DNA of 28,031 nt, from IMG/VR virus record IMGVR_UViG_2713896798_000016; one strand, 5' to 3'. The position numbers are program-made. Below are positions 15,001 through 24,000 of this stretch, piece by piece; within the stretch, counting starts at the first letter, position 1; the number at the start of each line of letters is the position of its first letter. The DNA comes from a virus. Lineage: Duplodnaviria; Heunggongvirae; Uroviricota; Caudoviricetes.

Positions 15001-18000
15001 AGGCGCAGATATTCCGCCTTCTCCATGGTTTCAGCAGTCGCCGGGGCAGATGAAATCATCACCTGCGTCAGCTGTGAACGTTCATACAAAGCAGACATTC
15101 TGCCTCCTGATAATAAAAAACCCGCACGCGGCGGGTTATGGGTTCTGTTGAAAAAATTACACCGTGACCTGAAACTCCAGGGTTGCACGGTAACAGCGGT
15201 TTTCCGGAATATAGTCCTGCATTTCACTGACGGATCCCGGGGCCAGCAGCATTATGGCTTCACGGGCGTCCTGACGTATCTGACGCGCCTGCGTCACAGT
15301 CCCGGCATAAACGTCTATCTGCACCGACACTGAGGACTCCGCCTGCCCGCCCATCACGTCCGCCGACACCGATGAAATCAGGCTGAAAACCACCCACGGA
15401 AGCGCCACCGACGGCCTGCCATCCAGCAGGGGGACCACATACGGGTACACCTGCCCGCCGGCAAGATGCGCCAGATGAGGATACAAATCCGCCTCCGTCA
15501 TCGTCTCAGTACCTCATCAATGGCCCGGTTCATCCGAGCAATCGCCACCTGTGCCGCCTGTTCACTGCGCACATCAAATGCCGGGCGCACAAACGGGTGC
15601 GGTGGCATATTCACGGTCCCCATTTCCACAAACCGCCAGTAGAAAGCATTGCGCGGGTTATCCGCCTTCATGGTGTTATCGCTGTTACCGGTGTCCGGAT
15701 TAACACCACGGATATGGACACCGGATTCCATACCGCCATCGCGGGAGCGCCGGGAAAGGACCACCACATTGCGGCGCAGTTTTCCCCTGCGCACCGGTGC
15801 CCGTGACACCACTTCTTCTTTCAGCACATTCGCACCCGCACGGGTTGCCTCACGCAGCACCCGGTTATTTTCCGCACCACTCAGAAGCTGCAAATCGCGG
15901 CTGATGTCCTCCAGCCCCGAAAAATCCAGCAGGGTTTCGATCATTTTTCCCCTCCCAGCCGACAGAGAATTTCCAGACGCCCGCCGGTCGCATCCGGCAC
16001 GGGCAGCCCGACAACGTTCAGGATCCGGTCACGCCATGGACCACTCAGCACATGAAGTCGTGACGCTGCCGTGATTTCCCGACCGGACTGACCGCGCACC
16101 CAGATGCGGATTTCCGCCTGCGCCATTTCCGCACCGGACTGCATCCGCTCCCGGCTGCTCCTGCCACGGATATCCGCATGAATTTTCCCGCATGACACCC
16201 ATTCTTCCGTCATTTCTCCGGCAGCATTACGGGTTAACACCGGGTTCAGAACACTTATCATCTGTGTCAGACGACCTGCAGATATTGCCATTCCCCCTCC
16301 TCATAACACCGTCGGACAACGCAAATCGTAAATCAGCACGGAAACAGAAAACGGCAGCTCCCCCTGAAGCAGTTCTTCCCGCTCCGCAAGATCCGGATTC
16401 CGGTACAGCATCCCGGTCAGTCGCATGGCAGCCCCCTTCATCCGGGTTAATGCCTCGCCCGGGATCAGTTCACCGTCCTCACGAATCACCTTATCCCGGC
16501 TGCCCTGAATGTAGGCCAGCAGCACGGCGGTAGCCTGACGAACCTTGTCCATCAGCATGTCATCATCCGCGTCATGGTCGACACGCAGATGTGCCTTGAT
16601 CTCTTCCAGCGTCAGTAATGCCGTCATTTTCCGCCTCCTGCATCCCGCCCACGTTTTGCAGCCAGGGTCCAGCCTGATGAATGAGCTTCTCCGGGTTTAT
16701 CACCGGTCATACTGTTGCAGTGCCACAGCGAGCCCCCCCACGTCACCGTATCGCCGGGGTGGTAGGTTTCACCGGCTCTGAACACACCGCGGTAGAGCAT
16801 CACCGGCAGGGAAAATGTTTTTTCCGTACACTGGCCACTGCTCTGCCGGACCACCACAGAGAACAACCGTTCACCCGTCATGCTGACGTCAATATCCGCC
16901 ACCCCGTCAACCAGGCATTCCCATCCCCGCATCCCGTGCGTTTTTTCATACGCCCGCCAGAGTCCGCCCTGGTGTGTGGCATACGTGCCCCGGGGAAAGG
17001 ATTTTTGATCGTCAATGGCAGGGAGTATTTCCAGTGCAGTGGCATCACGCCCGTCCTGCGGAGCCGGCAGGGCACTCACCGCATCCAGAACAGCCTTCTG
17101 CAGAACATCGGGATCATAGTCACGACCATCACGCGGAACAGGAATATGGCTTACCGCCTCCTTCACCATCTGTTCAAGCATCGGACGCACATCATCCGGG
17201 GTGATACTTTTACCGTCTGCCGGCTGCGGAATATTTGCGACCGCATCATTCACCGCCTTCTGCAGAACATCCGGATCGTAGTCACGACCATCACGCGGAA
17301 CAGGGATATGGCTTACCGCCTCCTTCACCATCTGCTCAAGCATCGGACGCACATCATCCGGGGTGAGACTTTTACCGTCCGCCGGCTGCGGAATATTTGC
17401 GACCGCATCATTCACCGCCTTCTGCAGAACATCCGGATCGTAGTCACGACCATCACGCGGAACAGGAATATGGCTCACTGCCTCTGTCACCATCTGTTCA
17501 AGCATCGGACGCACATCATCCGGGGTGAGACTTTTACCGTCCGCCGGCTGTGGAATATTTGCGACCGCGTCATTCACCGCCTTCTGCAGAACATCGGGAT
17601 CATAGTCACGACCATCACGCGGAACAGGAATATGGCTTACCGCCTCCTTCACCATCTGTTCAAGCATCGGACGCACATCATCGCCCGTCACGCACTTCTG
17701 TAATACCACAGACAGGGAAGCCAGTTTTTCTTCAAACGTTTGTGCCTGCGCGGCTATTTTCCCCTCAAATGTGCGCTGTAAATCCGCCAGCACTGCGGAA
17801 AATTCTTCACCCAGCGCACGGATAATGGACAGTTCACGTTCATTCATTTTTTCAGAATCCCCCTGAACATCGCCTTCACCGCATCATGCTCTGTTTCAGT
17901 GATTGCCTTATTACCGTCAGAGGCAGCGACCGCCTGAGGCACGGAAGCTGTTTTACCGGACGACGCGAACGGATCTTCACGGGCATCACGGCGGGACAAC

Positions 18001-21000: not shown

Positions 21001-24000
21001 GGTGTATTCATGAGGACGGAAGCCCACGGACAGCCCCCTGACCAGCCCGGTCTTAATGGCCGCCCAGGCCTCATCCAGCCTGGCAGCCAGTTGCGATGGC
21101 ATATCCGGCACGGGCTTCGCCAGTGTTGCCGTGATTTCCAGCCCTTCGCTGACCCGGCGCACCGTACACTGCCCCACCGGGCGGGAATGGTCATGCTGCC
21201 AGAGAAACGGGATCGCACTGCCAAACTCCGCGCCCTCCGGCTCCAGGATGTCACCATCCCGATCCGGAGAAGGCGTTGACGCAATCCCGGTGATCACCCG
21301 CTCATCCTCACTGAAGGATTTCACCGTCAGCAGGGAGCAGGCCCGTTTAAGAGTCACATCAGCCTCCTGAAAATAAAAAAACCGCCGCAGCGGTCCATGA
21401 TGGTTACAGGGTGAACAGGGTTATATGAAAAAAACCGCATATTCTTTCTTTTTCGGCTCCGGATTCAGGGACATCAGGGATACCGCATTGAAGAGCGCCA
21501 TCAGCGGGTCAATTTTCCCCCGTCCGCTGGCCTGTTTGGTAATAAGGATGGCGTTACCTTTCGGCTCCACCCGGGCATTGCCAACGCACCAGGCCATCAG
21601 TGGCTGACCACCATGCACCAGCACTCCCTCAGCCAGTTTGCGCTCGGTGGTTTTTATGGCCCCGCCCAGCTTCCAGCCCTGGCTTATCCCCACAACAATT
21701 CCGTCGGGGATCCCGGCTTCCGCCAGTGAATCCAGAATCTGCCCCACACCTGACGGGTCAATACCGATATGCTCCAGTAACTCAGCCTCATGAATACGAC
21801 GCACATACTCCGCCACTTCCGCCGTGTCATCCCCGACCCGACGGACAATCGTCATGTCTCCACAGGCCACAAAATCCTGAAACCGGGATGCCTCACTCTT
21901 CCGTCTGACCACCGCGGTTTCATGCGCCCAGGCATGGCCCCAGCCCAGCCATTCGCGGGTTTCCCTGTCACGGCCAATCACGTACATTCCCAGCAGATCA
22001 TCCAGGCCCCCGCCGTCAATCCCCACCGTCACCACATCAGCGCGCTGCAGGATATCGTCCAGGCTGACGCGCCTGCCCTGCTGCTCCCAGAAATCCGCAC
22101 CCGTCCAGCGGTCAGAACGCAGGGCAAGACCAATTTCCACATTGGCATGTTTTGACATGAAGCCACGAAATGCTTCCTCACCAGCCTCCCGGGCTTTACG
22201 GTACTCCCGGTACAGAAAAGCCTCATCCACCGAATAACCGAGATTCGGATTGACCATGGCGAGGTTTTCCATCAGCAGGTGAGCCCCGCTTTCCACCATT
22301 TCAGGAGGGTGTTCAAATATCACCGGCAGAAAGTGCGGATCATGAATTTTGCCGTCACGGACATCCCGGGCGTACTGCAGTTTCTGTCTGAACACCCCGG
22401 CTGGCGGCTCATTCGACTGGGTGGTTGTGTACACCACAAATCCTTCCGGACGGGAGGCAAGCCCGCCGATGGCTTCACGTAACATGTCTTCCGCTTTGTA
22501 CTGCTTGCCAAACAGCCACAGTTCATCAATCAGTGTCCCCACGGACTTGATACCGGACACCGTATTCGGATCGGCTGCCACCACCTTAAGGGTAGTGTCC
22601 GTCACCCTGTGGGTGATGGTCCGGATATGTGTCTGCACCTGGCAGAGGTCATCCAGATCATCGTCACGTCTGACCATATCCCGCGCAGGATTAAAGGCGT
22701 TAGCCGCCACCTCCACAGTCGGGGCCAGAATGGTGTAGCCCGCCGCCTGCCGCCAGTTCAGTAACAGCGCCGTCATCATGATCCCGGCAGCCAGCGTGGA
22801 CTTGCTGTTTTTTTTCGGGATAAGGATAAAAACTTCCTTGATATGGCGAACACCGGTCTGCGCATCGTAGGAGCCAAACAGGGCCGCCACCAGGTCAAAC
22901 ACCCACTGTGCGCAGGACTCCCCGAACGTCGGGCTGCCCGGTGCATCCACAATCCGCAGTTGTTTAAAAATCGCCAGTGCATGTGCAGCCTGATCCGGAT
23001 AAATCGGGGCCGGAATAATCGACAGCCCCTTTTTCAGGCGCTCTGCCCAGTCCGGGCAGGCCGTGCTCCACACAGGTATCATCCGTTGCCCTCATTATCA
23101 TTATTCACCACCAGTCGGGGTGGTGGTGGCACCGCAAAACGGTTAGCCGCTTTTTTCGCCGCGTCACCTTTTGCCGATTTTTTACCGGCATCCCCTTTTT
23201 TGTGGTGCGTGAACTGCGCCAGCTTATAAGCCGCATCCAGCGCCAGCCTGGGGTCGGTATTAATGTTCTCCACCAGAAGACGCCCCATCGCTTTCACCGG
23301 ATCGGGAAGACCGTCCTCCATATACTCAATACCAGGAGATATCACCACGGGCGGTGGCATCTCCGGATTTGTTTCGTCCGGCTGTGGTATTGCAGCCGCC
23401 TCACGGCGACGGGGTTTATCCTCCTGCTCTGATTTTTTCTGCCGGTAAACAGGAACCTCATCCACCTCCACCGTCTCGCACTGTTTACGGGCTATAAACG
23501 CAAGCACCTCCGGATCTTTTGCCAGCTGCGAGCCTTTAACCCTGGCTGTCTTCGCCGAATAACCGGCGGCAATGGCTGACGCTGTTTTGTTTTTCCCGGA
23601 CATGAGCGCCAGCGCAAATTTTCGTTTTTGCGTTGTCAGCACAGCCTCCTCCCGGGTCCAGAACGCACTCAGCCGGGTATGGTTCAGCCCATTTTTCCCG
23701 GCGTCTCATGCCGCAAATGTTAACTGCTGCCTGGTTAACATTTGCTGAAAAAGCCTGTTAACATTTTTTCCACGCAAGTAAGCGACTCGTCAGAACCGTA
23801 TTGATATTTACTGAGAGCTCAGATCAACTTTCCAGGGCAACAGATCGCGTACCCGGTTTGCCGGCCAGTCCTGGATATGTTCAATGACGTAACGCAGCCA
23901 CTTTTCTGGCTCCACATTGTTCAGACGGCATGTGCCGATCAGCGAGTACAACACCGCCGCATGTTCACCACCGCTGTCGGAACCCGCGAACATCCAGTTT

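Follow-up and report, generated by a model that had tools for sequence, protein, structure and literature searches.

A protease–capsid fusion gene upstream of the portal gene in the head module of an Stx-type Escherichia coli prophage

Introduction

In the tailed phages lambda and HK97, the head genes run in the order terminase, portal, protease, (scaffold), capsid. What, then, does it mean when a gene encoding protease and capsid functions together lies between the terminase and portal genes? This question is raised by IMG/VR virus record IMGVR_UViG_2713896798_000016, a stretch of 28,031 nucleotides referred to here as the window. An earlier note, made from its sequence alone, described such an order and could not match it to a known phage group. 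Here, the head genes of the window are assigned by profile searches and structure prediction, their order is compared across phages and bacterial species, and a mechanism of assembly is proposed for the fusion protein.

Results

Head genes of the window

The window represents an E. coli prophage, lambdoid and long-tailed, of the Shiga-toxin-phage (Stx) type. Its head genes are all encoded on the minus strand, in the order terS, terL, fusion, 73-aa ORF, portal, repeat protein and Ad1 (Table 1). Ad1 opens the series of HK97-like connector genes, and further connector genes and the tail genes come after it. The ORFs and profile searches confirm that the fusion lies between terL and the portal gene, as the earlier note had proposed. 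This order is indeed unlike that of lambda and HK97, in that the portal gene does not directly follow terL, whereas HK97 has terS, terL, portal, protease and major capsid protein (MCP).

Table 1. Features of the head-gene region, in window coordinates
Feature	Position	Strand	Description and evidence
terS, terminase small subunit	23079..23642	-	187 aa; PF03592 1.7e-8, phrog_641 1e-68
terL, terminase large subunit	21421..23082	-	553 aa; PF03354 and PF20441, phrog_9 1e-145
Terminator-like hairpin with T-run, terL/fusion gap	21379..21396	-	consensus scan
Protease-delta-MCP fusion ORF	19420..21357	-	645 aa; profiles, predicted fold, phage annotations
S78 protease domain, aa 1-142; candidate catalytic H55 and S110	20932..21357	-	PF04586
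Disordered linker, aa 143-192	20782..20931	-	model pLDDT 30-42
Candidate internal translation start (AAGGAA and ATG of M193)	20779..20796	-	sequence, relatives, anti-SD energy
Delta-like helical hairpin, aa 195-262, presumed scaffolding domain	20572..20775	-	models; TIGR01554
HK97-fold capsid domain, aa 290-642 (predicted)	19432..20490	-	PF05065, TIGR01554, Foldseek
73-aa ORF between fusion and portal	19154..19375	-	hypothetical in RefSeq/phage records
HK97-family portal, 454 aa	17844..19208	-	PF04860, TIGR01537, PDB portals
G5 run near portal stop	17859..17863	-	G6 in phages 2851, WGPS6, YYZ-2008
407-aa repeat protein	16624..17847	-	four 55-aa repeats and conserved C-terminal domain
Head-tail adaptor Ad1 (gp6-like)	16301..16627	-	PF05135, phrog_40

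Domains and predicted fold of the fusion protein

The fusion ORF, which starts with GTG 5 nt after an AGGAGG Shine-Dalgarno sequence, encodes an S78 prohead protease, a coiled-coil delta-like segment and an HK97-fold capsid protein in one reading frame. Peptidase_S78 (PF04586) matches aa 48-153 (34.1 bits, cut-off 21) and Phage_capsid (PF05065) matches aa 386-635 (52.5 bits, cut-off 24.2). TIGR01554 spans aa 204-584 (77.3 bits, cut-off 27.5), and phrog_617, annotated as 'major head protein', covers the protein end to end (2e-261). TIGR01543, the equivalog for the HK97 prohead protease, scored 46.6 bits, under its cut-off of 59, and the NCBIfam fusion family NF045541 scored 53.1 bits, below its cut-off of 525.

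An AlphaFold2 model built from an 87-sequence alignment (pLDDT 74 overall) places the protease at aa 1-142 (pLDDT about 80-88) and the HK97 fold at aa 290-642 (pLDDT 80-94). Between them lies a helical hairpin (aa 195-262), with disordered segments on both sides (aa 143-193 and 264-283); its helices, 195-223 and 229-262, were confident already in a single-sequence model. The linker at aa 143-192 is the stretch of lowest conservation in the family alignment. The best Foldseek matches of the model are the capsid proteins of Bxb1 (MCP, E-value 5.8e-12), D3 (1.5e-10) and HK97 (Head II, 5.7e-10, with a target-normalised TM-score of 0.63), and the capsid domain adopts the HK97 fold in the predicted structure. 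When the capsid part was compared with HK97 gp5 by pairwise BLAST, no significant match was obtained (E=0.29), so its kinship rests on the profiles and the predicted fold.

In the protease domain, S110 aligns with S114 of HK97 gp4, and H55 lies one position off H65; we take these gp4 residues to be the catalytic Ser and His. Both H55 and S110 are invariant across the 87 sequences. PF04586, PF05065, the model and the Foldseek matches thus bear out the domain composition proposed in the earlier note.

Gene order across phages and bacterial species

The 7-kb block containing these genes is 100% identical to E. coli chromosome NZ_CP144926, and about a quarter of the complete E. coli genomes (1255 of 5426) carry it. 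It is matched at ≥90% identity by 95 phage records; over all 7019 bases, identity reaches 96.9% in phages 2851 and WGPS6, 95.7% in YYZ-2008 and 95.5% in JLK-2012. Relatives of the fusion protein form 12339 clusters (50% identity) at E≤1e-3 and 1199 at E≤1e-30, mostly 640-670 aa long.

Synteny was compared at 80 species-representative loci from other species, of which 76 were informative. At 62 loci terL lies upstream and the portal gene downstream of the fusion, and at a further 14 the portal gene is downstream with terL undetected; no portal relative was detected at the remaining four. The portal is therefore downstream of the fusion in 76/76 informative loci, sampled from Alpha-, Beta- and Gammaproteobacteria, and at none of the 80 loci does it lie between terL and the fusion.

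The order terminase, fusion, portal is the standard annotated layout of a large group of E. coli Stx-type prophages and of their relatives in Proteobacteria, and the arrangement is accordingly ordinary and not new. The synteny comparison overturns the earlier view that it was unusual and unmatched: the same order is the norm in Pankowvirus, in Marienburgvirus, in PAJU2 and at all informative loci, and this is a well-described phage group.

These data also bear on whether the arrangement might be a defect of a decaying prophage, produced by rearrangement or by a gene-merging frameshift and devoid of functional meaning. The host genome annotation marks adjacent genes as 'frameshifted', an IS66 element lies nearby, and O157-type genomes carry many defective prophages. 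However, the same fusion and order occur at all 76 informative loci of other species and in the inducible or plaque-forming phages 2851, PAJU2 and phi330, the last a Pankowvirus (PMC12502783). The Ad1 gene is among those marked as frameshifted, yet its length equals that in phage 2851, from which it differs at a single residue. The conservation data effectively refute decay as an explanation, and its probability is negligible. We consider it highly probable that these genes make up a conserved module for head assembly, shared by a large HK97-like lineage of temperate siphoviruses and most likely operating by the two-product mechanism proposed below.

Portal, repeat protein and the G5/G6 run

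The 454-aa protein is a genuine HK97-type portal, as the earlier note had assigned it. PF04860 matches at 1.8e-81 (274 bits, cut-off 39) over profile positions 2-321 of 321, and TIGR01537 at 4e-105 (352 bits, cut-off 112). Solved portals are matched as well, including 9lbn (1e-28) and the HK97 portal 8cez (1e-19), and identity to HK97 gp3 is 26%. In the profile searches of the 645-aa and 454-aa proteins, the protease, capsid and portal families thus all exceed their Pfam thresholds.

Two features of this region had been missed in the first note: the 73-aa ORF and the continuity of portal and repeat protein in the type phages. The 73-aa ORF overlaps the annotated portal start and is kept in Enterobacterales loci; a family search with it gave no match. 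Downstream, the ATG of the repeat protein overlaps the portal TGA (ATGA). In 65 loci, the portal is followed by a homologue of the repeat-protein gene, and relatives of the protein contain collagen repeats and a CBM5/12-like domain.

With a run of G6, phages 2851, WGPS6 and YYZ-2008 encode the portal and the next gene as a single ORF of 859-861 aa, while the G5 run of the window leaves two ORFs, as in JLK-2012. The single-G difference, the long ORF of these three phages and the PGAP label 'phage portal protein, frameshifted' would fit a broken 859-aa portal gene, in a prophage unable to build heads. Several observations make this reading quite improbable. The portal and downstream gene are separate in 64/65 loci of other species, as well as in PAJU2 and Marienburgvirus JLK-2012, and the two-ORF state is the norm outside E. 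coli. The 454-aa part alone spans the entire HK97 portal profile, HK97 gp3 itself being 424 aa, and in the split state the two ORFs meet in a clean ATGA, where stop and start overlap. In addition, G5 is seen on three different local haplotypes, in 19/54 loci. As a secondary reading, the run may act as a toggle, with the collagen-type fibre protein either made free or tethered to the C-terminus of the portal.

A conserved start signal within the fusion gene

The earlier note described a single polypeptide with protease, scaffold and coat functions. One ORF does encode all three, but the single chain may be only part of the picture, given a conserved internal start. In the window, AAGGAA (20796-20791) precedes the ATG of M193 (20781-20779), with 10 nt between the AGGA core and the start codon. 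ATG, GTG or TTG is found at or adjacent to this position in 75/75 aligned relatives, a count that is not one of independent cases since the sequences share kinship. The mean anti-SD duplex energy at the site is -7.4 kcal/mol across these 75 related, and hence non-independent, sequences, compared with -2.3 for background and -1.9 to -3.2 for other conserved Met codons used as controls, and 47% of the sites rank in the top 5% of their own gene's positions. The window's own internal Shine-Dalgarno sequence is moderate (-6.2 kcal/mol, top 12% of gene positions, at the same 10-nt spacing). An in-frame Shine-Dalgarno sequence and start codon, the hallmark of genes of the lambda C/Nu3 type, are thus conserved at the protease/delta boundary.

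Protein-level boundaries lie at or near this place. Unfused MCPs of relatives begin exactly at the M193 equivalent, residue 193 is the last of the disordered linker, and the full-length MCP model TIGR01554 begins to match at aa 204. Constraint at the protein level, or what is left of an ancestral gene boundary, could account in part for the conserved Met and KEG-type residues.

Lambda, HSV-1 and the archaeal virus HFTV1 provide known cases of nested protease/scaffold genes (bioRxiv 10.64898/2026.09.13.751334). By analogy with lambda C/Nu3, the conserved start signal suggests a second, nested product, delta-MCP, and that the bulk of the coat protein may be made from it, without protease. The joint claim that the fusion ORF is a nested two-product gene, with a minority of subunits carrying the protease, and that this has not already been described, is a tentative one that we would not expect to hold in full.

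Discussion

Proposed assembly mechanism

The fusion gene would give rise to two in-frame products, a 645-aa protease-delta-MCP from the GTG and a 453-aa delta-MCP from the internal Shine-Dalgarno sequence and ATG at M193. Both would co-assemble around the portal through their common delta and MCP parts, so that some coat subunits would bring the protease into the procapsid as their N-terminal extension. The Ser/His protease would then cut off itself, the linker and the delta domain, leaving about 350 aa as the mature coat protein, which would expand upon DNA packaging. The making of two products, their ratio and the cleavage sites are what we infer from the conserved gene, domain and start-signal organization.

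Alternatively, the gene may encode an obligate polyprotein. The full-length 645-aa chain would then be its sole product, with one protease attached to every coat subunit and released by self-cleavage once assembly is complete, and the ATG at M193 and the Shine-Dalgarno sequence before it would be a relic of an ancestral gene boundary. The uninterrupted ORF with its strong 5' Shine-Dalgarno sequence and the single product given by databases are consistent with this, as is the report that small actinophages commonly encode 'capsid and protease fusion' proteins (PMC9671004). A relic should decay, yet the start codon persists in all 75 relatives, down to about 36% pairwise identity. The Shine-Dalgarno signal is also well above both gene background and control Met codons, and it is kept within the least conserved part of the protein. 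We regard the obligate polyprotein as unlikely, though as a serious contender to the two-product mechanism.

Significance

The arrangement is already known: annotations of it exist for reference phages from three or more ICTV genera and for over a thousand E. coli genomes. As first reported, it is of little import. It does illustrate that there is a very large and stable exception to the 'universal' order of terminase, portal, protease and capsid. It also exposes errors of automatic annotation, in which the fusion becomes a plain 'major capsid protein', the repeat protein a 'portal' and the two-gene portal 'frameshifted'. The G5/G6 toggle, if true, would hint at the virion location of an uncharacterised repeat protein.

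The nested reading, if true, would extend the principle of lambda C/Nu3 and herpesvirus UL26/UL26.5 from free scaffolds to a coat protein that contains its own scaffold, with a scope of thousands of proteobacterial prophages. A confirmed nested start would explain how a fused protease is dosed at less than one copy per coat subunit.

Comparison with known head modules

In the ICTV genera Pankowvirus and Marienburgvirus, whose members are long-tailed Stx1/Stx2c-converting phages, heads are encoded by this same module, which related O157-type lambdoid prophages also carry. Pankowvirus phages 2851, WGPS6 and YYZ-2008 and Marienburgvirus JLK-2012 share the order terS, terL, fusion, small ORF, portal, and their fusion proteins are 98.8-99.2% identical to that of the window (figures excluding YYZ-2008). 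The records of WGPS6, YYZ-2008 and JLK-2012 label the fusion 'major head protein/prohead protease'. The Pankowvirus records differ from the window and JLK-2012 in joining the portal and repeat protein in one ORF.

Pseudomonas phage PAJU2 (Detrevirus) encodes, as gp01-gp09, terS, terL, fusion, small ORFs, portal, a 334-aa ORF, Ad1 and Hc1. Its gp03, 'prohead protease fused capsid protein', is 48% identical to the window fusion and has an internal AGGAGG and ATG at M197. PAJU2 differs in host, in its distant sequence and in having two small ORFs between fusion and portal. Burkholderia phage vB_SBP39, of the same lineage at 39.6% identity, has the order terL, protease, MCP, small ORF, portal. In contrast to the window, its protease and MCP are unfused, the MCP start aligning with M193, and no repeat-protein gene follows the portal.

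HK97 gp3, gp4 and gp5 belong to the same protein families as the window proteins and presumably share the same assembly chemistry. The gp4 protease is 29% identical to that of the window with the catalytic Ser aligned, both capsid proteins have the HK97 fold (predicted for the window) with an N-terminal helical scaffold domain (presumed for the window), and HK97-like Ad1, Hc1, gp10 and tail-terminator genes come next in the window. However, the HK97 protease is a separate gene, in the order portal, protease, MCP, whereas in the window the protease-capsid block and portal are swapped and protease and capsid are joined in frame. The window capsid part is about 70 aa longer than gp5, and HK97 lacks a fibre-like gene after the portal. 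A putative terminator directly precedes the protease gene in the HK97 record, while the window hairpin precedes the fusion.

Actinobacteriophage clusters EE, AN and AU and NF045541 likewise join protease to coat in one ORF, although they do not belong to the family of the window fusion. In lambda C/Nu3, HSV-1 UL26/UL26.5 and HFTV1 gp17/gp17.5, an assembly protein is made both by itself, through an in-frame internal start, and with the protease as its N-terminal extension. The conserved internal Shine-Dalgarno sequence and ATG of the window fit this nested-gene logic. Where those systems share a free scaffolding protein, the window would share a coat protein with a built-in delta scaffold.

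Gene order of the head module

The head region carries the order terL, protease-capsid fusion, portal, within a 10-kb interval (14-24 kb) in which every gene lies on the minus strand. Profile searches also identified HK97-like Ad1, Hc1, gp10-like, tail-terminator and major-tail genes. These matches bear out the order described in an earlier note, which is non-canonical relative to HK97, where terS and terL are followed by portal, protease and MCP. An artefact of prophage permutation was rejected, since the portal gene sits between the capsid gene and Ad1 in one co-directional gene string.

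Features of the head region and its surroundings, with domains of the 645-aa fusion protein
Feature	Position	Strand	Basis or remark
sodC moron	~5672-6199	opposite	annotation of identical E. coli chromosome
Ad1 head-tail connector	16301-16627	-	RefSeq annotation of identical chromosome
407-aa repeat protein	16624-17847	-	repeats
HK97-family portal	17844-19208	-	PF04860, 1.8e-81
73-aa ORF	19154-19375	-	between fusion and portal
645-aa fusion ORF	19420-21357	-	Peptidase_S78 aa 48-153; Phage_capsid aa 386-635
Terminator-like hairpin with T-run	21379-21396	-	between terL and fusion gene
terL	21421-23082	-	profile searches
terS	23079-23642	-	profile searches
HNH endonuclease	~23933-24298		annotation of identical E. 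coli chromosome
ISEc23 (IS66 family)	~27139 to end		annotation of identical E. coli chromosome
Beta-rich protease domain	aa 1-142		AlphaFold2 model
Disordered linker	aa 143-193		AlphaFold2 model
Two-helix hairpin	aa 195-262		AlphaFold2 model
Second disordered stretch	aa 264-283		AlphaFold2 model
Capsid domain, well predicted	aa 290-642		AlphaFold2 model

In HK97 a putative terminator is annotated at the place equivalent to that of the hairpin, directly before the protease gene. The fusion begins with GTG, five bases 3' of AGGAGG. The 73-aa ORF, which shares about 55 nt with the start of the annotated portal gene, is kept in Enterobacterales relatives and has no family match in Pfam or NCBIfam. 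Just upstream of terS lies an HNH endonuclease gene, typical of HK97-like cos phages; the sodC moron is located inside the tail region, and the lysis region, at the end of the window, contains the ISEc23 insertion. The 'frameshifted' flag on Ad1 appears spurious, as its product equals that of phage 2851 in length and differs by one residue.

A 7-kb block of the window matches an E. coli chromosome at 100% identity. Of the 5426 complete genomes of E. coli, 1255 contain a match to it, which is nearly full-length in 1242. Phage records with at least 90% identity number 95, almost all of them Stx1a-, Stx2a- or Stx2c-converting phages. The ICTV-classified Pankowvirus 2851, WGPS6 and YYZ-2008 and Marienburgvirus JLK-2012 share the gene order of the window, and their fusion gene is labelled 'major head protein/prohead protease(proteinase)' or equivalent. 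One recently isolated Pankowvirus, phi330, forms plaques; neither its paper nor the supplement contains head-protein data for the siphovirus (PMC12502783). Our literature search returned nothing specific on the head genes of this E. coli module or on a nested protease-MCP gene.

The lineage extends well beyond E. coli. Relatives of the fusion comprise 12339 representatives of 50%-identity clusters at E<=1e-3, of which 1199 reach E<=1e-30; among the best 150, nearly all have a length of 640-670 aa and align end to end. An alignment of 10 closer sequences was used to query one-genome-per-species collections, and relatives of the window terL, portal and neighbours were located in the 80 loci fetched, which span Enterobacterales, Pseudomonas, Marinobacter, Rhizobiales, Sphingomonadales, Burkholderiales and others. 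The fusion has terL upstream and portal downstream in 62 of the 80, and portal downstream with terL undetected in a further 14. A portal relative went undetected in four, and in none did portal lie between terL and the fusion. The cultured Pseudomonas phage PAJU2 reads terS, terL, gp03, small ORFs, portal, a 334-aa ORF and Ad1, with gp03 annotated as 'prohead protease fused capsid protein'. Burkholderia phage vB_SBP39 has the same order as the window with S78 protease and MCP as separate genes, the protease upstream.

Judged by these sequence comparisons, a very large lineage has terL, fusion, portal as its normal order. The earlier note had called the order unusual and had not matched it to a known phage group. 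That view does not hold: the order recurs lineage-wide and in cultured phages, and thus proves to be the norm of a well-described group, an outcome that the note itself had named as refuting it. What the window carries is a head module, annotated before, that Stx-type long-tailed prophages share with a broad proteobacterial lineage; the note described its gene order and fusion accurately, and the biology is ordinary.

Domains and structure of the fusion protein

The reading of the 645-aa protein as protease plus capsid was correct, with Peptidase_S78 and Phage_capsid both exceeding Pfam curated thresholds. The profile phrog_617 ('major head protein') spans it end to end, and TIGR01554 (HK97 MCP, NCBIfam) scores 77 bits from aa 204. 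A single-sequence AlphaFold2 model reached a pLDDT of 38 and was confident in the hairpin only; the final model was instead built on an 87-sequence alignment and reached 74. Its two-helix hairpin corresponds to the coiled-coil, delta-like segment proposed between protease and capsid.

The modelled capsid domain matched solved HK97-fold capsid proteins in Foldseek, namely Bxb1 (5.8e-12), D3, HK97 Head II (target-normalised TM-score 0.63), RcGTA and T5. By sequence, the capsid part had no significant pairwise BLAST match to HK97 gp5, and a PDB search with the fusion returned only the Bxb1 MCP (E=0.0017). The protease part is 29% identical to HK97 gp4. S110 aligns on gp4 S114 and H55 falls one position off gp4 H65, residues that we take to be catalytic in the HK97 protease; H55 and S110 are invariant among the 87 family members.

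Portal gene and the downstream repeat protein

The 454-aa protein is a portal, as proposed: TIGR01537 (NCBIfam) scores 352 bits, and this part by itself spans the complete portal profile. PGAP marks the window portal 'frameshifted' across 16624-19208. Where the window has the portal and a 407-aa ORF, phage 2851 has one 859-aa ORF, the difference being caused by a G5 run in the window (17863-17859, minus strand) versus G6 in 2851. WGPS6 and YYZ-2008 also carry the single ORF (G6), and JLK-2012 carries two (G5). The 54 IMG/VR loci with the junction divide into 35 G6 and 19 G5, the G5 loci lying on three local haplotypes.

Of 65 loci outside E. coli, 64 have the portal and the gene after it as two ORFs, and so does PAJU2. 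Together with the complete portal profile on 454 aa, this makes two genes look like the usual state of the family and a single fused ORF like a peculiarity of the E. coli lineage. Programmed -1 frameshifting at an A6 run before the portal stop was set aside, because other taxa normally have two ORFs that overlap by ATGA, in either alternative frame. The G-run polymorphism between portal and putative fibre gene may be new. Automatic annotation applies the word 'frameshifted' to what is, in other species, the normal state with two ORFs.

In the 407-aa protein, four 55-aa repeats stand in tandem and about 90 aa at the C-terminus form a conserved domain; a homologue of its gene follows portal throughout the lineage. 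The matches from a PDB sequence search were all to designed repeat proteins and due to chance. Collagen triple-helix repeats (1e-24) occur in distant relatives, and the C-terminal domain that they share with it has weak CBM5/12 similarity, which points to a trimeric fibre. PHROGs and many records name the protein 'portal protein', a label that looks to have been carried over from the fused ORF.

A conserved candidate internal start in the fusion gene

Among the relatives are unfused capsid proteins, 456-478 aa long, that start exactly at M193 of the window fusion ('MNIAEQI...', 'MKTIQE...'), the residue at the start of the delta domain. The protease-capsid junction always falls at this position, including in vB_SBP39 (locus L168, 1905-3891) and in P0383, a protein in which a capsid of this family is joined to a ClpP-type protease in place of S78.

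In an alignment of 75 fused genes, pairwise identities have a median of 49% and go down to 36%. All 75 have a start codon at the M193 column or within a few residues (70 ATG, 3 GTG, 2 TTG), and ahead of it the reading frame encodes a motif resembling a Shine-Dalgarno sequence, for example AAGGAGGGCACGAAAATG. At this site the energy predicted for pairing with the 3' tail of 16S rRNA averages -7.4 kcal/mol, versus -2.3 over every codon position in these genes, and the site ranks within its own gene's top 5% in 47% of sequences. Other conserved Met codons (M217, M515, M588), taken as controls, give -1.9 to -3.2. The start signal sits in the least conserved, disordered portion of the fusion. In the window it consists of AAGGAA (20796-20791) followed by ATG at 20781 and is only moderate, at -6.2 kcal/mol.

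This conserved internal start may be new. Two products, protease-delta-MCP and delta-MCP, probably come from the fusion ORF, which would then follow the logic that lambda, HSV-1 and HFTV1 use in their nested protease/scaffold genes.
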